The position numbers and the translations under genes are program-made. DNA of 64,000 nt from Parvularia atlantis (Eukaryota), in assembly GCA_943704415.1 (NCBI GenBank), contig CALSCO010001386.1, positions 1 to 64,000 on the forward strand, given 5' to 3'. Below are positions 3,997-16,945 of the stretch, piece after piece (position 1 is the first letter of the stretch; each line of letters opens with the position of its first letter). The notes under the pieces are model-generated. The model was not told the DNA's origin. It saw only the letters and a program-made list of their open reading frames with translations, and searched no databases.

Positions 3997-5424
3997 ATGC
4001 AGCTCGAGGAAGCCGCCACGCGCGACCCGCGCGATCGCTCCTGGTTCGAGTCGTGCCTCGGGCCCGTCTTCGCCTTCCTCACGGACGCGCTGGGCGGCCC
4101 GCCGAGTACCGTCACGATCAACGGCCGGCGCTTCCGGCTCGCGCCGCTGGGCGAGGGGTGGCGTCGTCGATCTCGCTGGCGCATCAGAGTCGCTAAACGT
4201 GTGCGTCGCGCATCGCGCGCAGCGCCTTCAGCTTTGTCTTCGCGGCCGAGGAGATCGGCACGGGCCACACGTTCGCGCTCAAGCGCATGACTTGCCAGGA
4301 TAACGAGTCCGTGCGCGAGGCCCTGCGCGAGGCCGAGCTGTACCGGCTGTTTCGCCACCGCAACATCATCGCCCTGCACGACTCGTGCGTGCTCGACTCG
4401 CCGCGCGTGCCGGGCGCCAAGGACGTGTACATGCTCCTGCCGCTGTATCGGGTGTGTGGATGGCCGCCGTGTGCGCCGCGATGCTGAGCGCGCGCGGCAG
4501 AGGGGCACGCTGCAGGACCTCATCAACGACATCGGCGCGCGCGACCGCCTCGAGGAGGACGAGGTGCTCGCGATCGCCCTCGGCCTGTGCGAGGTGTGTC
4601 CTACGCACACGATTGCGCACGTGCGCTGACTGCGTGCAGGCCGTCGCACAGCTGCACCACTTCAAGCCGCCGGGCTCGAGCGTCGAGACGCCCCTGGCGC
4701 ACCGCGTGCGTCTCGCTCACCCCGCCCGCGAGGCGCTGACGCGGGCACGGTGCAGGACATCAAGCCGGGCAACGTGCTCCTCGCCGACGACGACCAGCCC
4801 GTGCTGATGGTGCGCGCCTGCGTGTGTGCCTGCGTGCCGCCGCCGCCGACGCGACACGACGCGACGCGCGCTGCAGGACTTTGGCAGCGTGACCAAGGCG
4901 CGCGTGACCGTCAAGACGCGCACCGAGGCCGTGGCGCTCTCGGTGCGTCCCGCCGCGCGTGCGCCCGCGCACCGATCACGCCGCGCAGGACCTTGCGGGC
5001 GAGCGGTGCACGATGCCGTACCGCGCGCCCGAGCTGTTTGACGTGGCGACGGGCGTGACTCTGGACGAGCGCACGGACATCTGGGTGCGCACGCCTGCGT
5101 CTGTGCCGGAACGTGTACGCACACACTCATTCCGCCCGGGTCCAGTCGATCGGTTGCACGATCTACGCCGTTGCGTACGGCATATCGCCCTTCGAGAGGC
5201 AGGCCGCGGGCGGCAGCCTTTCGCTCGCGATCGTCAACGGCAGGTTCGAGTACCCGCGCGACGACCCGTACAGCGGTGCGCGCCACCGCGGCCTTGCCGT
5301 GCCGGGGCTGAGCGGTCGGGCAGCCAAGCTGCGCGGGATCATCAACTTCTGCCTCGTCGTCGACAAGGACCAGCGGCCCTTTGTGGACGAGGTGCTCGAG
5401 CGGCTCCGCACCGCCAGGCAGTAG
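3997..5424 (+). CDS. STK16: NAK-family Ser/Thr kinase STK16/Env7-like
   Basis: LGEG|AFSFVF, FALKRM, AHR|DIKPGNVLL, M|DFGS, ERCTMPYRAPELFDV, DERTDIW|SIGC, GGSLSLAI. Confidence 0.92.
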
Positions 5425-5488: not shown

Positions 5489-8168
5489 TCAGAGCGGCTG
5501 AACGCGGACCTGCAAAGTCACGTTGCCCGTCACGTTGTCCTCGTTGCTGCACGCCGCCGCCGCGTCAGCTCGCGCCTATGCCCAGGGTCGCGCCACGCAC
5601 CGGTACCAGACCGACGGCCGCCGCTCGCACTCGAGCGTGTAGTCGACAAACCCGCCGTACTTGCCCTCGACCATGGCCGTCTCGGCCACGACGTTGACCT
5701 CGCCCATGAAGTCGTCGGCGCGGACCGTGTTGTAGTTCCAGATCTGCACGTTGACCAGCGCCTGGTCGAGCGTGTGACTGAAGAACACAAAGCTCTCGTT
5801 AAACTTGGGGTTGAGCGTGTCGTTGCAGATGACAAAGCCGCGCGCCTGCGCCGCACGGTTGGCAACCCGCACGCCGCAGCGAAGCACTCGCGCACCTCCT
5901 GCGTCTCGCGCGACTGGATCGCGCAGCAGCCCTCGGTCGAGTCAGTGCAGCGCACGAGCAGGTACGGGTCGGCGCCCTGGCCCATCATGTCGCTCTTGCG
6001 CAGGTTGTCGGCCTGGATGACCTGCGTGGCGTGGGTGGCGCGCGTGGGGTCACGCCCTGTGTTCGCGAGCGAGCGGCGGCGGGCGTGCGGCGCACGTTGA
6101 CCGTGATGCGGTACTTGTACGGGCCCTTGCACCGCGGCTCCTTGGGCTTGGTCGCGACGAGCGGCTCGCACTTGGCGAAGAGCGTCGAGACGCGCAGGAG
6201 CGACGTCTCCACAAACACGCGCAACAGGAACTCGGACGTCTGGCCGGGCTCGAACGTGCTCGGGACAATCACGTAGTTGCCCGGCATGAGCTCGCAGCGC
6301 GACGACAGCTGGCGCGCGTTGATGTAGTCGACCTTGTGCGCGACCTTGCCCAGCTCGACCATGCGCAACATCCGGTTGGCCTCGGTTTGCATGATCACAA
6401 ACCTGTTGCGAGCGCGCGCGCACGCTCAGTCACCCCCCGTTGCAGCCACCTCCCACACGCGCGCACCCGATCGACACGTTGGCGCTCGGCGGCGGCCCGC
6501 TCTCGGTCGTCAGCGCCATGCTCGAGCCGCTGCCGGCCGCGGGGCCGCCCCGATGGTCCTCCTGCATCAGACTCACGATCACCTTGGCCTTGTGCTTGAG
6601 CGTGAGCATGAACTGCGGGTTGTTGAGGAACGTGTCCGGGTGGTTGGTGCTCCCGCCCGAGTTGACTGCCGCACGCCGCGCGCGCGGACCGTGAGCGTGG
6701 CGTAGCGTGGCGTGGCGCGCGGCCCTACGCACGCTTTGTCCACGAGTTGTTGAACGTAAACACATGGAACGTCGACTTGGTGCTCAGCAGCGCCGTGTTG
6801 ATCACGCGGCACAGCACGATCTTGTTGAAGTGCTGCGCGGCGCCTCTGCGGTGAGCGCGCGACACGCGCGACGCACACGCCCGGCGCACCTGCACAAAGT
6901 CCTGGAAGCTCATCCAGAACTCGCCGTCGTCCGCCTTGACCAGCCCGAGCTTCTTCTTGTCAGCGTCCGAGATCTTCTTCCACTCCTGCGCGCTCAGTCA
7001 GGCGTGCGCTGCGCTGCGGGCTCATTGGGCGGGCGCGCGGACCTCCGAGTTGTCGGCCCACGCGCCCGTCCACTCGCCCTCGCCCCACGGGTTGCGCAGG
7101 CGGATCATCTCAAACTGCTCAAAGTTGAAGAAGCCGCGGTGCTTGATGCGCTGGATCGCGGTGATGGCGTACGCTGTGTCGCGCGGCCCACGCGTCAGAC
7201 GAAGTGAGCGAGCTGGCAGTCGCGCGCACCGTGGCCCGGCACCAGGCCGCTCTCGCCCGGACGCTCGCGCTCGTCTTCGGGCACGTCCAGAGCGCCGATG
7301 CTCGCCGTGACCAACGCACCATCGCGACGCGCGTGCGCGAGGCGCTCAAACAGGCGCTTGACGTCGGTCTGGTCGTCGACGGTGATGTCGTCCACGACTG
7401 CCCGCGCGGCCGCCGCCGTCAGTCGTGCCGCACCGCACGAGCGGCCGCGCACCGCCGTTGGTGAAGTCGACAAGCGCGTCGGCCGTGCTGCCCGTGTCGA
7501 GGCGCTCGTACGAGCCGACGAGCTTGGCGTAGGCCTTCTCGAGCAGCGACGCCCAGAACTCGTTCGAGGCCTTGGACTGGGCGAAGATAAGCTGGCCCGT
7601 CTCCTGGTTGACCGGGAGGGTGTCGTCGACGACGACCTCGATGCGCTTGCCCATGCGCCAGAAGCGGAAGCGCACGATGCCCGCGTACTGCTTGTCGTCC
7701 GTCATCTGCATGTCCTGCGCCTCCTTGTCGGGGAAGACCTGCGCACGGCGTCAGCCTCCCCCGATCGCATCGGCCTGCAGCCCGCGCCGCACGCGCCTCG
7801 TCCAGGTACTCGCGGTTGCCCGCCAGGACGCAGCACGCCGTCACCAGCCAGCAGTTGCCGATGTGGCCCTGGACGATGTCGTTGGTTGACGCGCCGTCCA
7901 CCAGCAGCCGCGCGCCCGCCGCGATCTCGTGCGGCCGCTTCCAGACGATCTTGGGGTACTTGGCCGAGAGCGCGGGGCCGATCGACTGGCGCGGGGGGGG
8001 CGGGCCGTGAGTCTGTGCGCATTCCCACGAGCCGACGCTGAGCAAAACCTGGCTCGACGCGGGGAACTTGTCGTCGACGAAGAGCGCGCCACTCTCCTTG
8101 TGGCCGGCATGCTGGCGCAGCAGCGCCGCGTAGTCCTGGCCGAAGAAGTGCACCAGGCTCGGCGCCAT
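5489..8168 (-). CDS. Calpain with CysPc, domain III and C-terminal C2 (calpain-5/TRA-3-like architecture)
   Basis: FVDDKFPAS, QGHIGNCW (Cys), GH|AYAIT (His), RLRNPWG (Asn), NSGGSTNHPDTFLNNPQF, IVPSTFEPG, C2 ADPYLLV..LNPKFNESF..DDFMG. Confidence 0.93.
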
Positions 8169-8484
8169 GGCTCTGCGCGCGCGCCCGCGGTGGCGGTGGC
8201 GTGAGCTTCCTCGCGCGTGCCCTGAAACAGGCCCCGGCGCGCTTAGATCTCGCGCGCACAGACGCCCCCCTCCCACAGCCGCAGCCCCGCTCCCGGCACC
8301 GGCCTCGCGCGCAGCACGTCCGCGCCGCGCACCAGGCGGCGGCTGTCGCGGGCTGCACGGCACAGCGGCGCGCGCGAGGCAGCTCGCCGGGCCCCTGCCG
8401 CGCCGCCAATAAGTCGATTCGAGAGAATGCAAGTACGTATCGCGCGCTGATTGGTCCGCACGCCCAGCCAACCAGCGACGCGCG

Positions 8485-11400
8485 ATGAACAGCGCGGCCG
8501 ATGTGTCGGCCGCGCCGGCCTCGCTCGACCTGCCGTGCGTGGCGGCCGCTCGCGCGCACGCGTGCACCGCGAGAGGCGCTGATCGCGGCGCGCGCAGGTA
8601 CCGCGTCGAGCGCTCGATGGACAACGAGCACCTGCAGGCGATCATGGAGCCGCTCATCCACGGCGCCGTCGACGGCGAGGCGCCGCTGCCGATGCTCGCT
8701 TTCACGCGCGTGCGCGTCGAGGGCGCCGCCGCCGACCTCGGCCAGACACCCGAGTTTGTCGCGATGGCCCAGCAGCTGCGCGAGTGCATGCGCCTGCGCC
8801 GGCGCTACCTCGATGCCAGCGTCCAGACCGCCGGCGCCAACCCAAAGGACGCGCGCACGGGCGTGCGGGCCGACGGGCGCACACCGCCGTTCGACCCGTT
8901 CGATGCGCCGGTGCCGGCGAACTGCAGCAACACGGTGCGTGCGGGCGGGCCCACACCCGCACGGCGGCTGATCGATCGAGCAGTACACGTGCGAGTTCCG
9001 CGACGGCGTCTTTGTCGTGCTGCGCGCCGCGGGTGCGCCCGTGCGCCGCGGGCTTGCGCGGAGCAGCTGATAGTGCGCGGCCGTGCAGACAGATCGGCAG
9101 AGTACGACATCCCCAACGTCGGCCAGTTCTACCGCGACCTCAACGTGCTGCTGTCGGTCGCGTCGGACGGGCCGACCAAGTCGTTCGCGTTCAAGCGGCT
9201 CAAGCTGCTCGAGTCAAAGTTCAGGTGCGCGCACACGCCCCGTCGCGCCGTCAGCCTCACCGCCGCACGCCAGCCTCTACGTGCAGCTGAATGAGCTGGC
9301 CGAGCGCGCGGCGTGCAAGGTTCGGCGCCTGCACGGTGGGCCCGCACGCTCAGCCCGGACCCCGCTCAGCTCGTGCCTCACCGCGACTTTTACAACGTGC
9401 GCAAGGTCGACACGCACGTGCACCACAGCGCGTGCATGAACCAGAAGCACCTGCTGCGGTTCATCAAGTGCAAGCTCAAGCGCAACCCGAACGTACGCGC
9501 CGCATAGCACCGCGCCGCCAGTGCGCTCACGTGCCCGGTCCCCTCAGGACGTCGTCATCTTCCGCGACAACCAGCATCTGACGCTCGAGCAGGTGTTTCA
9601 GTCGCTCAAGCTGACCGCGTACGACCTCAGCATCGACACGCTCGACATGCACGTGCGTCCCTGCTACGCGGCCGCTATGCGGCCGGCTCACGACGCACGC
9701 AGGCGCACAGCGACGCATTCCACCGCTTCGACAAGTTCAAGTGCGCGTCGCTGGCGTCGTGGGCACAGCGCGACGTATGCTGAGCCGCGCCGCGCCGCAC
9801 AGCCTCAAGTACAACCCGGTGGGCGAGTCGCGTCTGCGCGAGATCTTCCTCAAGACCGACAACTTCATCGGCGGGCGGTACCTGGCCGAGCTGACGATGG
9901 GTGGGGCGCGCGGCGAGGCCGGGCCGAAGCGCACACAAGCTAACCTCACCGCCCCCGCGCGACGCCAGAGGTCATGGCTGACATGGAGGAGTCCAAGTAC
10001 CAGATGGCCGAGTACCGCGTGTCGATCTACGGAAAGTGCGTGGGCGGCCGCCGTGCGACGCGGACCGCGCGTCCTGACGCGGGGCGCGCAGGTCTGTGTC
10101 TGAGTGGGACAAGCTGGCCAGCTGGTTCTGCGCCAACCGCGTCTTCTCGCCCAACGTGCGCTGGCTGATCCAGGTGCCGCGACTGTACAGCGTGTACAAA
10201 AGCACGGGCCTCGTGCGCACGTTTGCCGACTTTCTGCGCAGTGCGTGGGCGTACGCAGCGTGTGAGCGCTCGCTGAGCCGGCCGCAGACCTGTTCCAGCG
10301 CCTGTTTGAGGCGACGATCAACCCGGAGGCGCACCCGAGCCTACACCGCATGCTGCAGCAGGTCATCGGCTTCGACTCGGTGGACGACGAAAGCAGGTTT
10401 AGCAAGCGCATCCACAAGATGTGCGTGCTCGCGCGCATTCAGCCCCGCGATGGCTCACGTGCGCGTAGCTACCCGACGCCCGAGAATTGGGACCTGCCGT
10501 CCGACCCGCCGTACTCGTACTACATCTACCACATGTGGGCCAACGTAGCCTCGCTCAACCGGCTGCGCAAGGAGCGCGGCATGAGTGCGTCGCAGTGGTT
10601 GCGGCGGCCTCACGCTCACCCGGCCGCGACGCACGCACAGACACGTTTGTGCTGCGACCGCACGCGGGCGAGGCCGGCAACGAGGCCAACGAAAACCTGG
10701 CCGTGTGCTTCCTGCTGTCGTACGGCATTTCGCACGGCATCCTGCTGCGCAAGGTGCCGGCGCTGCAGTACATGTGCGCCGCCGCGACCGTCGCGCATCG
10801 CATCGGCCGCGGCTGAGCGTGCCGCAACCCAGGTACTACCTCGAGCAGGTCGGCGTGGCCATGTCGCCCCTGTCCAACAACGCGCTCTTTCTGCACTACG
10901 ACCGCAACCCCTTCCCCGAGTTCTTCAGCCGCGGCCTCAACGTCTCGCTGTCGACGGACGACCCGCTCCTGCTGCACTTCACGCGCGAGCCCCTGATGGA
11001 GGAGTACTCGTGCGCGGCGCAGGTGCACGGCGACATTGCGGGGGCGCGCGGTCTCACCCATGGCGCAGATCTGGCGGCTCACGGCGGCCGACATGTGCGA
11101 GCTCGCGCGCAACAGCGTGCTGCAGTCGGGATTTGAGCTGAGCCTCAAGCGAGTGCGCAGCACTTGGTGGGCGAGACCAGTCTGACCACGTGCGCAGTAC
11201 TGGATCGGCGACCGCTGCGACCGGCCCGGCGTTGAGGGCAACGGTGCTGGCGCTCATGTGCACACGCTGCAGCCACTTGATGCATGCGCGCGCATGCAGA
11301 CATGAACCGCACCAACGTGCCCGACATCCGCATCGCATACCGGCACGAGACGCTGACCGAGGAGCGCCGGCTGATCTGGGGCGACGGTGCGTGACGCGGG

Positions 11401-11706
11401 CTGCTGCGGGCTGCTACGCACGGCGGTCTCACTTACCTCGCCGCAGATTACGCCGGGACGTACGAGCCCGCCGCCACGACCGTCGCGCAGCCAGAGGCTC
11501 TGCCGCATACAGCACCAGCCGCAGCAGCCGCACCCGCGCGAGACCACAAGGCGCAGGCGCTGGCGAGCGTCAAGCGCAAGCTGTCGGTGTTCACATCGCT
11601 CGGCGTGCTCAACAGCCTGCACGGGCTGCCGGGCTCGCCGCACAAGCCGGGCGAGGCGGACGCGGCCGGGTCGCCGCCACGCAAGACGGCGCGCAATGAG
11701 ACGTGA
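8485..11706 (+). CDS. AMPD: AMP deaminase
   Basis: [75 protein letters not shown]; about 17 introns. Confidence 0.97.
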
Positions 11707-11737
11707 TGTTGCAGATTAGACTTGCAGCTCGTCCTTG

Positions 11738-13375
11738 ATGTATCGTGTGCAAGCAACGAGCTGGATCGATGCGCCCGGCGGGGGCGGCGCGTGGCGCACG
11801 ACGACGGTCGAGGTGACGGCGCGCGGCGTCGAGCTGAGCGCGGACGGGAAGCGGCGGGTGTGCGCGCAGACGGGGCGGGCGCGATGTGCGTGACGTGGCA
11901 CGGCAGACTGTCAGCTTCCGCGACGTCGTGCGCGTGGCCAAGGACGCGTCGTACTGGGTCGTGCCGGACGCGGTTACGCTCACGCTCGGCAACGGGCGCG
12001 TGGAGCACATCGCGGGCCTGCCGCACCAACACGACGCGTTCCTCGTCCTCAGCCACTTCTGGCACGGGTGCGCGCGCTGCCGAACGCGCGTGTGCTGACC
12101 GGCCCCGTTGCAGATGGTGGGCCACCGTCAACGCGCTCAAGACGGGACACGAGGCCGGGATGCACGCCGCGCCCCGGCTCAGCGGAGCGGTGCTCGCGCC
12201 CGAGATGGCCAACGCGCTCGTGCGCCTCGTCACTCGCGTGATCGGCTCGCGAGCTGACGCGCGATCGACGCCGCAGCGGCGCCTGGACGAGGCGGCCGCG
12301 GCCGGCGCGGACGCGGCACGCGAGCTTGCGCGGCAGACGGGTGCGCGATGTGCCCCGGTGCGCGGCAGTGGATCGCTCACGTCCGCCTGCAGAGCAGCTC
12401 GAGCGCATCTACAGCGGCACGGTCGAGGTCAACCACAACCTGGGCGTGACGCAGCGCCTGCTCGACAGCATGTCGTCGTGGTGGTACGTGCCGATGACCA
12501 CGGCGAGCGCGGCGCCGTCGAGCAAGGGTGCAGCGTCTGCTGCGACCGCCGCGCCGGCCGTGACCAAGACGCCCGGCCCGCGCGACCCGCCCGGGTGGGC
12601 AATGTATGCGGCCGAGGCGCGTCGCGCGTTGTGCACACTGCGCCGCCGGCTGACCGCGGCGTGCCTGCACAGAAGCGCGGCGAGTACGCGGCCCTGCGCA
12701 TCGACGAAGCCGGCCACTGTGCGTGCGGCCGCGTGCCCGTTCGCGCTCACACGCCGCACAGACCGCGCCTGCACGCTCCGCTGCGGCAACGGCGGCGTGC
12801 GGCTGCACGACGAGGAGCGGCAGAAGAACGAGACAGTGCCGCTGGCCAGCGTCGCGTCAGTCGCGTGCGACCTCGACCGCTGCCGCCTCGTCATCCGCGA
12901 TCGCGGCGGCGTAACGCACGAGCTGCTGAGCGCGCGGCTGTCGGTGCTGGCCGCGCACGTGCACCGCTGGCTGCCGGACGCCGGCAGCGCGGGCGCGCAG
13001 CTGTCAAAGACGTCGGCGCACAAGGCGTGGGGTGCGGCCGCCGCTGAGGTGGACGAGGCGGTCGTGCGACCCGTGGCCGTGACGTGGCTGCGCGTGGATG
13101 GACCCGCGCGCCCCGCGTCGGCCGCGAGCGAGAGCACGGGCAGTGGCGGCATGCAGGCGCAGCTGCGCGCGACCGAGCAGCTGCCCGGCACGGACGCGTT
13201 CCTGGACGAGGTGTCGGCACAGGTGTCACGGCTAGGCCAGCTGGCGACGGCGCTCAACACAACGCTCGTGAGCAACGACGAGCTGCTGGACCGCATCGAG
13301 CGCCAGGTCGACCAGGCCGACGCGGCGCTGCACAAGCAGACACGCCAGGCCGTGCGCATAACCAAGGCGCTGTGA
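11738..13375 (+). CDS. SNAP47: SNAP47-like Qbc-SNARE (PH/GRAM-like, SNARE, PH-like, SNARE)
   Basis: VVRVAKDASYWVVPDAVTL..AFLVLSHFW; ARELARQT|EQLERIYSGTVEVNHNLGVTQRLLDSMSSWW; HELLSARL; C-terminal t-SNARE helix LDEVSAQVSRLGQLA..LLDRIERQVD; no TM segment. Confidence 0.72.
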
Positions 13376-13390
13376 ACGTTGTATGTCATG

Positions 13391-14477
13391 TCACCCATTT
13401 GCGCCCTCTGTCTGCTCACAGCACAGCTCGCACGCACACGTGAAGTAGTAGTGCTCGCGCAGGAACGCCTGGCGCAGCTCACGGCACGCGTCCTCGGCCG
13501 AGTAGCACAGCGAAAGCTCGTCGCCCGCGCGCACGGGCGCCGTCGTCACGACCATCGCGTGCCCGTCCGCGTAGAGAAAGCGGCAGTTGGCGCGGCAGCT
13601 GTGGTTGAAGAAGGACGCGAGCGGGAACATGGCGACGCCGACCGGGTCCCAGTCCTCGTCGAGTACATTGAAGCTGTTGCAGCGCACGCGCAGGAACGCC
13701 TCGCGCAGCGCGTCCTCGCTCAGCGGCGCATCCGCGTGCTCGCGCGCCGGCACAGTGAGCAGCTGCCGCCGATCGTGCGACGCGCCCTTGGGGTGGAAGC
13801 ACGCAAGCGCCGTGCGCACGACGTAGGCGACCGTCTCGAGCTGCCCGGGCGTGAGCAGGTCGCGGCGGTCCATCATGCTCGCCACGTCGACGAAGCTGCT
13901 CAGCAGCACCGCGTCGTCCCCCTCGGGCTCGGGTGGCACTGGTGCGTGTGCCTTCCACGCTCGCTCCGCCGCGAGCATGATGCAGAGACGGACCTGGTCC
14001 CAGGTCTCGCGAAACTCGCGGTGCACCGATCGCTTCGTCGCCTTGAAGGCCGCGCGCTGCACGCCCGCGAGCCGCTGCAGCGCGCGGCACTCGCCGCCCG
14101 CGCGGTGCGGGCCGTCGGGGCGCGTGCACTGCTCGAGGCACGCGAGCGAGCACAAGAAGATCTGGCCGCGGCACGCCTCGCACGTGATCGTCCATTTGCG
14201 CGGCCCGGACGCGAGGCACTCGTGGCACACGAGGCGCTGCTCCCACGCGCGCACGCACGCACGTCAATCGGCCTGCACGAGCGATGGGCTTGCAACGCGC
14301 CTTGTACTTGTCGCCAACGCCGAACGCAAGCCAGCGCGTGCGCATCACGACCGCGCCCTCGGATAGGTCCACGCGGCTCGCAACGTACCAGCCGCGCGCC
14401 GCATCGGCCTCGTCCGGCGCGGCGCCGGCCACGCGCAGCCGCGGATGCGCCCTCAGTGCGGGCGGCACGTCACGCAT
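13391..14477 (-). CDS. SMYD-family SET/MYND lysine methyltransferase
   Basis: MYND-like CHECL..CEAC..CSLAC; NSF..FPLASFFNHSCRANC, GDELSLCY, YYFTCACELC; one GC-AG intron. Confidence 0.9.
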
Positions 14478-14592: not shown

Positions 14593-16945
14593 ATGCGCTG
14601 GTGGGACGCAGCGCTCGCGCGCGAGCAGCGCCGGCTGCTTGTGTACCGCGTCTCGCTCGGCGCGGCGCTGCTCGTGCTCGTCGTCGCCGCCGGCGCGCTC
14701 ATCGTGTACCTGTTCGACGGGTGCAAGTTCCCCGGGGGCGGGTACCAGGGCTGCTGCGCCCAGGTCGTGCTCGGGCAGCAGTCGTGCACGAGCGAGACGG
14801 GCGTGCTGCAGTGCTGCTACCTCTCGGGCGGGCTCAACTGCACCACGGCGCCGGCCGAGGAGGGCAAGTGCACCGCGCCGCGCACGGACGACGCGACAAC
14901 GGCGATGGCCCTTGCGATCACGGGCATTCTCGTGAGCTACCTCGTCGTGAGCATTGCCTGGCCGCTCTACGTCTATACGAGCCAGCAGGCGATCCACCCG
15001 CTCTTTGTGCGCATCGCCCGCACCGCGTCCGAGGACACGCCACCGGACGACGTCGCGGCGCTCGTGGCCGACATCAACAAGAACGCCGCGTTCGAGATCG
15101 TCGGCATCCTCCCGCCCGACGTCCGCCTCGCCGTCGACCGCACCACCCAGGAGGCCCTGCACGAGCCGCTCCGCGTCGTCCTGCCCACGCTGCTCTGGGC
15201 GTGGCTGTCGCCGCAGGGCCACCAGTTCCTCGACACGTGGAGCTCGCGCGGCACACGCGTCGGCAAGCGTACGTCCGGCCGCATCCTCTTCCTCTCGGCC
15301 GCGCTCAACCGGGCCGACCTGCTGCGCGTCATCGTCACTGCGCGCCTGACCGACGCCAACATCTCCGTGCTCAACACGGGCTGCGACATCAGCTTTGCCG
15401 ACCTTGTGCGTGCGGTCTGGCCTGGCTGCGTGACTGCCTGCCGCTCACGCTGCGCACGCGCGCGCGCGCGTGCGCAGGAGCCCGTGCCGTGGCGCATCGC
15501 GCTGCAGGCGCTCATCACGGCCGGCGTCGTCAACATCCTTGCGCCGATCAGCGCCCTCAACAGCACGCCCGACCAGTATCCGCAGCGCATGCCGCCGCCG
15601 CTCATCGTCGCGACCGTGCTCGGGCACCTTGACGTGGTCGTGGCCCTGCTCGAGATGCGCGCGAACCCGTCGATCACCTTTGTCGGCGGCATGACCCCGC
15701 TGCACTACGCCGCCAAGTTTGGCTTTGGCGAGATTGCCAAAATGCTCATCTTCAGCGGCGCGTCGGCTGAGACGCGCTCGACCGCGGGCACGACGCCGAT
15801 GGACCTCGCGTCCAACGCTGACGTGCAGGTGATCATGCGCGCGGCCCTTGCCGCCAAGCGCAAGGTCGACCAGGCCGCGCGCGACACGGCGCTCTCGCCG
15901 ATTGAGTCCGAAGCGCTCCTGCTCTTTGGCGAGATGCGCCTGACCGAGCGCACCAACGCCGATACGCTCAAGGGCACGTTCCGCGGCATGAGCGTCGCCG
16001 TGCAGGCGCGCGCAGCCCCGCGCGAGGCGCACAAGACCATCCTGACCGAGGCCGCCGTCCTGCGCACGCTCGCCCACGCGAACCTGCTCGCGCTCTACGG
16101 CGTCGCGCTCGGGCCCGAGGACAAGCGGCTGTACTTTCTGCAGGAGGTGGCGTCGTGCGCTTCAGTGCGCAGGCCGTGTCTCACTCGCGCGCTGGTGCGC
16201 ACGCAGCCGATCGAGGCCGACACCTTGCTCGATTACATCCGCCAGCGCGCGCGCCGCGGCCAGGCGCTCACACTCACGCTCAAGCGGCAGGTGGCCGCGC
16301 AGATCGCCGACGGCATCGCGTGCCTGCACGGGAGCGGGCTGCTGCACCGGCACGTCGCTGCGCGCAACGTACTCGCCGTGCGCCCGCCCACGCCCTCTGC
16401 GCCGATCGTGCCCAAGATCATCAACGTCTCGCTCGGCGACCAGCCCACGAGCGCCGACGTGTCCTGGACCGCCCCCGAGTCGCTGCAGGACCCGGCCAAG
16501 CACGTGTCGGCGTCGGACGCGTGGTCCTTCGGCGTGCTGTACTGGGAGCTGCTGACGGACGGGCTGGTGCCGTTTGGCACGGCGCAGCCGAGCGACGTGC
16601 GGGAGCGCATCCTCGGCGGCGAGGTGCTCTCGCGCGTGCCCAACACGCCCTCGGACGACACGATGATCATGATGGACTGCTGGCAAACCGACCCAGACCT
16701 GCGGTGCGCGGCGTGCACGTGCGGCCCGCCCCACCCGCCCGCGTGCCTCACCGCCGCCCCCGCGCAGACCCACCTTCAAGCAGCTGCGCCGGCGCCTCGA
16801 GCAGCTGCAGTCGTCGACATCGATCCCACGCCCGCAGGCGTCGCCGACCAAGGCCGCGCGGGGCGCCCGCGCCTCGAGCGCGCCCGCGAGCGAGACGTCG
16901 CCGCTGCTCGTGCGGCAGTACTCGGGCTCGTCCCTGGACGACTGA
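14593..16945 (+). CDS. Two-TM, ankyrin-repeat, tyrosine-kinase-family pseudokinase
   Basis: Two hydrophobic helices around a Cys-rich loop; GMTPLHYAAKFG ankyrin; HRHVAARNVL, WTAPESL, SDAWSFGVLYWELLTDGLVPF, MMDCWQTDPDLR|PTF. Confidence 0.8.

Follow-up and report, generated by a model that had tools for sequence, protein, structure and literature searches.

A Qbc-SNARE with SNAP47-like domain order in Parvularia atlantis, a design that probably predates animals

The window analysed here, a stretch of 64,000 nucleotides from Parvularia atlantis, contains a gene for a Qbc-SNARE that resembles animal SNAP47 in the order of its domains. P. atlantis belongs to the nucleariids, part of the lineage that is sister to fungi, and taxonomy places Nuclearia in Opisthokonta, Rotosphaerida. 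The favoured reading, with a probability of about 0.6, is that this nucleariid protein shares its design with SNAP47 by descent and would have a role in membrane recruitment and fusion. That the two are related by descent is, taken by itself, quite likely. The SNAP47 type of Qbc-SNARE probably predates animals and possibly reaches back to the root of eukaryotes. Features of the gene and its protein are collected in Table 1.

The gene is real, being expressed and spliced, and its model stands from exon 2 onward. Exons 2 to 7 are joined across introns 2–6 in a transcript-like contig (run X1, record 2; 11906-13427), while the DNA-like run X3 gives an unspliced stretch without these five joints. 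The transcript-derived database protein P0001, which carries the source label EukProt EP00160 Parvularia atlantis, is identical to gene model B from residue 110 on, that is, over the last 335 amino acids. Together with the contig joints of X1 it rules out the other three of the four candidate models (A, C, and D). Intron 1 is spanned by no contig, the spliced contig beginning at the exon 2 border, and the support for exon 1 is its conservation in the ortholog L001. Run X2 contributes one 203-base piece at the locus (11643-11845) besides short chance matches. After removal of six introns, every word quoted in the preliminary description is found on the plus strand between 11738 and 13375, with AFLVLSHFW in exon 2, RLLDSMSSWW in exon 5, and both HELLSARL and TLVSNDELLD in exon 7.

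An animal source or contamination was considered and rejected. The protein matches one labelled Parvularia atlantis at 100%, the genes are compact with short introns (43-57 nt in the SNARE gene) in a window of ~70% GC, and a syntenic ortholog occurs in independent metagenome contigs. The source organism is thus not an animal, as the preliminary description had supposed.

Table 1. Positions of the SNARE gene, its exons and introns, and the parts of its protein in the window
Feature	Position	Strand	Basis
SNARE gene, 7 exons, 444-aa Qbc-SNARE, SNAP47-like domain order	11738..13375	+	model B; protein P0001; contig joints
Exon 1, first half of N-terminal domain	11738..11857	+	aligns to L001:4300-4692
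Intron 1, GT-AG, 49 nt, inferred	11858..11906	+	frame kept; spliced contig begins at 11906
Exon 2, with the second half of the putative GRAM/PH-like domain at the N-terminus, whose last residue is W92 (12060-12062)	11907..12067	+	57% identity to L001; weak GRAM match
Intron 2, 46 nt; position common to L001	12068..12113	+	contig joint
Exon 3	12114..12219	+	contig joints
Intron 3, 57 nt	12220..12276	+	contig joint, P0001
Exon 4	12277..12340	+	model B
Intron 4, 52 nt; position common to L001	12341..12392	+	contig joint
Exon 5	12393..12616	+	model B
Intron 5, non-canonical GC-AG, 56 nt	12617..12672	+	joint 12614/12671, two shared letters; P0001 reads through
Exon 6	12673..12718	+	model B
Intron 6, 43 nt; position common to L001	12719..12761	+	contig joint
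Exon 7	12762..13375	+	model B
3' untranslated part	13376..13427	+	spliced contig X1 record 2 reaches 13427
Qb SNARE motif, ~aa 128-181, exons 3-5; zero-layer Q149 at 12334-12336	12214..12484	+	PDB chain matches
Predicted PH-fold linker domain of seven strands and a C-terminal helix, aa 225-311, exons 5-7	12614..12973	+	AlphaFold2, Foldseek, VIA-align
Short conserved words KAWG ... RPVAVTW in disordered second linker	13022..13087	+	kept in P0002/L001
Qc SNARE motif, aa 384-444, with N412 (13274-13276) as its zero layer	13190..13372	+	SNAP29 Qc E 2e-4

A further protein, P0002, has 39% identity to P0001 and pointed to four metagenome loci. The metagenome locus L001, at 56% GC, has a gene order in common with the window, consisting of a kinase, AMP deaminase, the SNARE, an ankyrin kinase, and a RING-type gene, of which the first and last were named from their translations. 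The L001 SNARE gene keeps all four parts of the protein, including the N-terminal domain with its exon 1 portion, and three intron positions (introns 2, 4, and 6) are common to the window gene and the modelled L001 gene. Synteny and similarity together point to L001 as a syntenic ortholog from a nucleariid-type lineage.

The neighbouring genes show features of their own. The AMP deaminase gene has the orientation of the SNARE gene, and its stop codon precedes the SNARE start by only 31 nt (window 11704-11738); the corresponding distance in L001 is 56 nt (4243-4300). Contigs of runs X1 (11500-11822) and X2 (11643-11845) cross both genes, and overlapping or read-through AMP deaminase/SNARE transcripts are possible; contigs of this kind cannot prove a single transcript. 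A membrane-anchored ankyrin and tyrosine-kinase-like gene (window ~14593-16750, plus strand; L001 ~6140-8597; Pfam Ank and PK_Tyr_Ser-Thr) has HRH/HKH instead of HRD in its catalytic loop in both species, and by its sequence is a probable conserved pseudokinase in a relative of fungi. A SMYD-like SET-domain gene on the minus strand (13391 to ~14500) is convergent with the SNARE gene and overlaps its 3' untranslated part. A calpain-like gene, also on the minus strand (~5500-8030), seems from its translations to end in a C2-like segment. Neither the SET-domain nor the calpain-like gene has a match at the corresponding place in L001.

The SNARE protein contains a Qb and a Qc motif in one chain, which defines a Qbc-SNARE of the SNAP25 family. 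Both helices had been proposed from the sequence, and both match SNARE chains in the PDB. The best match of the Qc motif is SNAP29 (E 2e-4), with a weaker match to Sec9 (E 0.28). The Qb motif matches a Vti1-like chain best, at a weak E of 0.013, and then SNAP25. The hydrophobic layers of Qc are regular, and several of the N-terminal Qb layers are Ala. The highest 19-residue Kyte-Doolittle window reaches 1.04, which indicates that there is no transmembrane anchor. All four Cys residues (244, 248, 276, and 281) fall inside the linker domain and L001 has two, leaving no Cys cluster of the SNAP25/SNAP23 type after Qb. The protein is therefore without a transmembrane segment or a Cys cluster, as first described.

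The Asn that had been pointed out at the Qc zero layer is real (N412) and also occurs in L001. It is not unusual and is unlikely to be decisive, because eight of 30 aligned Qc motifs carry N or H at this position; it is probably a tolerated lineage change. The spacing between the two zero layers is 263 residues in the window protein and 270, 292, and 250 in the other long forms, compared with 108-185 in 26 other Qbc matches. LIR-like words are frequent in the window SNARE sequence, perhaps by chance.

The linker between Qb and Qc is predicted to adopt a PH fold. AlphaFold2 was run with a four-row alignment on P0001, which is without the N-terminal domain, and gave two long helices with seven strands and a helix between them (pLDDT ~70-75). 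At E<=0.001, Foldseek matched this model to 13 entries, and the top ones listed contain PH-fold domains (CARMIL, SSRP1, TBC1D23, and MTMR6). VIA-align superimposed model residues 111-215 on PH, FERM-F3, and PTB domains at Z 10-12 (up to 11.9) and also matched the helices of Sec9 and SNAP25. The second PH-like domain of the preliminary description thus corresponds to a predicted fold. In the disordered second linker, the short conserved words (P0001 residues ~219-240) loosely recall the SNAP25 linker as printed in PMC11344281.

The N-terminal 92 residues form a conserved domain that is also found in L001, putatively a diverged GRAM/PH domain. It has no Pfam match. Similarity to protist GRAM domains is weak, with 45 and 26 of 1000 shuffles reaching the score in one comparison and 7/500 and 41/500 in another. 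The hhalign probability to GRAM is <1%, obtained with two-sequence profiles that are uninformative, and a profile of the N-terminal domain found nothing meaningful among PDB sequences. Of the PH/GRAM-like segment originally described, the conserved domain therefore stands, but its GRAM/PH identity is putative given the missing Pfam match and the 7/500 shuffles.

Long Qbc-SNAREs are also found in two other protists. In the jakobid Andalucia godoyi, P0008 passes the Pfam cut-off for GRAM and continues with Qb, a linker domain, and Qc. The amoebozoan Luapelamoeba hula contributes P0045, in which a GRAM domain (E 9e-17) is followed by Qb, a long linker of like size, and Qc. The combination of GRAM, Qb, long linker, and Qc in a jakobid and an amoebozoan is new here, and the two GRAM domains match each other with a z of 10. 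Two transcript isoforms of L. hula, P0044 and P0045, differ in the absence or presence of the N-terminal GRAM domain, which may reflect a real isoform or incomplete assembly.

P0008 aligns to P0001 in one piece through Qb, linker, and Qc (E 3e-12). Its linker matches that of the window protein with a Smith-Waterman z of 6.8 (0/1000 shuffles reach the score), and the linker profile scores 14.0 bits against it, compared with a shuffle maximum of 8.0 (n=500). The L001 linker alone does not match the jakobid linker significantly (236/1000 shuffles). Likewise, the amoebozoan linker is not significant against the nucleariid profile (296/500 shuffles) and is marginal with a three-row profile (3/500). 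The single-sequence fold of P0008 is poor, with a pLDDT of 41, and Foldseek with this fold gave nothing at E<=0.001. A comparable linker joins Qb and Qc in the jakobid, so the PH-in-linker design probably arose before the opisthokonts. The scope of the preliminary description was too narrow because the jakobid and the amoebozoan share the layout.

Searches by protein features place SNAP47 first. In the ESM Atlas, the top three clusters for P0001 are chordate-dominated SNAP47 (best 0.92, 186/256 features), with PH_SNAP47_2nd (PF28207) in 95-99% of members and GRAM (PF02893) in 15-20%. For P0008 the three leading clusters are again chordate-dominated SNAP47, with PH_SNAP47_2nd at the same 95-99% (best 0.91, 182 features). 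With this tool, nine of ten true family members share at least 170 features and shuffled proteins reach 0.9 in 4-10 of 100 cases; for P0001 the top family is common to just five of the ten best family-bearing matches. An oomycete PH-containing cluster ranks lower, at 0.82 for P0001 and 0.81 for P0008. This rank-5 cluster of both proteins has 56 members, most commonly Oomycota, with a length of 364 aa and Pfam PH in 84%, and is automatically named SNAP47. PH-bearing Qbc proteins may therefore exist in stramenopiles too, and database labels of this kind may already anticipate SNAP47 outside animals.

Sequence searches by contrast do not reach SNAP47. A phmmer search with the 335-aa P0001 against 1.84 billion representatives (E<=0.001) gave 31 matches, 26 of which are other Qbc proteins that have two motifs and do not belong to the long forms. 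No animal protein of SNAP47 length is among the 31, and the 20 that were looked up include two named animal proteins, both SNAP29. Word-based homolog searches matched the protein itself, P0008, and P0044, with no SNAP47. Two candidates were discarded, P0004 as a bacterial repeat protein matched by chance and P0030 as it has a single motif only. Another match of unusual Qbc layout, P0020 (356 aa, ENA), has a C-terminal domain after the Qbc-SNARE with a weak Fascin match (E 0.057).

PMC11718230 gives the zero layers of human SNAP47 as Q143 and Q390, a spacing of 247. The SNAP47 design likely predates animals because the host is not an animal, the domain order agrees, ESM ranks SNAP47 first, and the zero-layer spacing matches. 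This upholds the part of the preliminary description that concerned the age of the design, but orthology to SNAP47 goes beyond the evidence, the named animal matches of phmmer being SNAP29. PMC6143360 calls SNAP-47 metazoan-specific, and PMC5399786 counts SNAP-25 among the proteins of LECA. Within the literature searched, which did not cover the founding SNARE classification papers, supplements, or SNARE databases, SNAP47 is nowhere reported beyond animals. SNAP-47 terms are absent from the accessible portions of PMC11344281, PMC2639358, PMC9546365, PMC7934909, and PMC9750855, and those of PMC7191049 and PMC13639004 contain nothing on the origin of SNAP47.

The relationship among Qbc-SNAREs was examined with a tree of joined Qb and Qc motifs, comprising 30 rows picked by similarity to P0001 and ~125 coiled-coil columns, without SNAP47, SNAP25, or Sec9 rows and omitting P0004 and P0030. 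In this tree, the nucleariid-type pair group as sisters (99.6/100), separate from the SNAP29-like clade. The tests reject a grouping of all four long forms into one clade (p-AU 0.003; 0.007 with repeated searches), also with P0006 and P0015 added to it after the tree had been viewed (p-AU 0.017). A clade of nucleariids and jakobid is not rejected (p-AU 0.09-0.13), nor are nucleariids as sister to the SNAP29-like proteins (0.28). The rejection of a long-form clade is compatible with two histories: the extra domains were lost repeatedly, or they arose independently in the amoeba.

Repeated loss is at the centre of one alternative, in which the long GRAM-Qb-PH-Qc form is the ancestral Qbc-SNARE, the short SNAP25, SNAP29, and Sec9 types arose from it by repeated domain loss, and the gene is the nucleariid counterpart of Sec9 acting in exocytosis. 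The scatter of long forms among short forms in the tree agrees with this, as does the weak grouping (72/74) of the amoebozoan long form with two short ones. Nor did a short Qbc of nucleariids appear in the data, which do not include a whole genome. The deep nodes of the tree are however unsupported, and ESM ranks SNAP47 first rather than Sec9 or SNAP25, making this alternative improbable.

Convergence is a little less probable again. PH and GRAM domains are mobile, and PH-fold domains could have been added independently in animals, nucleariids, and other protists, which would reduce the likeness to SNAP47 to one of layout only. The lack of SNAP47 among the 31 phmmer matches and the rejected clade of four long forms agree with such a history, and the weak similarity of the N-terminal domain and of the amoebozoan linker, as well as the existence of an oomycete cluster whose PH domain is of the ordinary Pfam kind, are in keeping with it. 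Against this, two domains would have had to enter the same two places in four lineages, and the match between the nucleariid and jakobid linkers is significant. Even for P0001, which does not include the N-terminal domain, SNAP47 clusters rank above the oomycete PH cluster. A regulatory or inhibitory SNARE, whose Asn zero layer and Ala-rich Qb layers would form a weak bundle competing with a working Qbc, is very improbable. In its favour, both nucleariid-type genes retain N412 and Ala fills several of the N-terminal Qb layers; against it, the Qc layers are regular and N or H at the zero layer is common enough (8/30).

Under the favoured reading of shared descent with SNAP47, a role can be proposed by analogy with the human protein. 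PMC11718230 and PMC10968809 describe recruitment of human SNAP47 through its PH domain by PI(4,5)P2 and ATG8, followed by assembly with STX17 and VAMP7/8. As an anchorless Qbc-SNARE needs another route to membranes, the window protein would be soluble and be recruited via its PH-type domains, by binding phosphoinositides and possibly ATG8. One syntaxin and one VAMP7-type R-SNARE would then join its Qb and Qc helices in a four-helix bundle. This bundle would bring about the fusion of lysosomes with autophagosomes, phagosomes, or endosomes, most likely in an autophagic or endolysosomal pathway.

The two papers tie SNAP47 to autophagosome-lysosome fusion through its PH domain, a recent development (PMC11718230, PMC10968809). 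A version of SNAP47 in the sister group of fungi would imply an origin at least in the opisthokont ancestor, with a presumed loss in fungi. With the jakobid and amoebozoan genes, this origin could lie as deep as the eukaryote root, and the ancestral trafficking machinery could gain a component. Tentatively, the last eukaryotic common ancestor may have had GRAM-Qb-PH-Qc as a second type of Qbc, kept in animals (as SNAP47), nucleariids, amoebozoans, and jakobids and lost many times elsewhere, although the odds are somewhat against it. If so, the SNARE targeted through lipid and ATG8 that is currently described as the default in autophagosome-lysosome fusion would be ancient and no animal invention. 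The result dates a known type of protein and extends its range rather than adding a new mechanism, and the protist sequences offer diverged material for mapping the PH-domain residues that matter.

Compared with known systems, P0008 and P0045 are like the window protein in having an N-terminal domain, Qb, a linker domain of ~90 residues, and Qc, with significant linker likeness in P0008. They differ in that Pfam still recognises their GRAM domain and both of their zero layers are Q, and the linker likeness of P0045 is not significant. SNAP29 is the best PDB match of the Qc motif and is a Qbc-SNARE that, like the window protein, lacks a Cys anchor; it is soluble, as the window protein probably is too. 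The SNAP29-like matches are however 222-284 aa long, without a folded domain in the linker, and group in a clade of their own (99.5/99) to which the window protein does not belong. SNAP25/SNAP23 and fungal Sec9/Spo20 share the Qb and Qc motifs, but have short linkers and match more weakly than SNAP29. SNAP25/23 use palmitoylated linker cysteines, according to PMC7191049.

SNAP47 differs from the window protein in being an animal protein with Q rather than N at the Qc zero layer, and the two are too distant for phmmer to find SNAP47. In the window protein the GRAM/PH identity of the N-terminal domain is putative, and so is orthology to SNAP47. The two proteins nonetheless agree in length (444 aa here, ~420-430 aa in SNAP47) and in the placement of the zero layers (149/412 here, 143/390 in human). 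Both combine two SNARE motifs, a PH-type linker (predicted in the window protein), and an N-terminal domain in a chain that has neither a transmembrane segment nor a Cys cluster.
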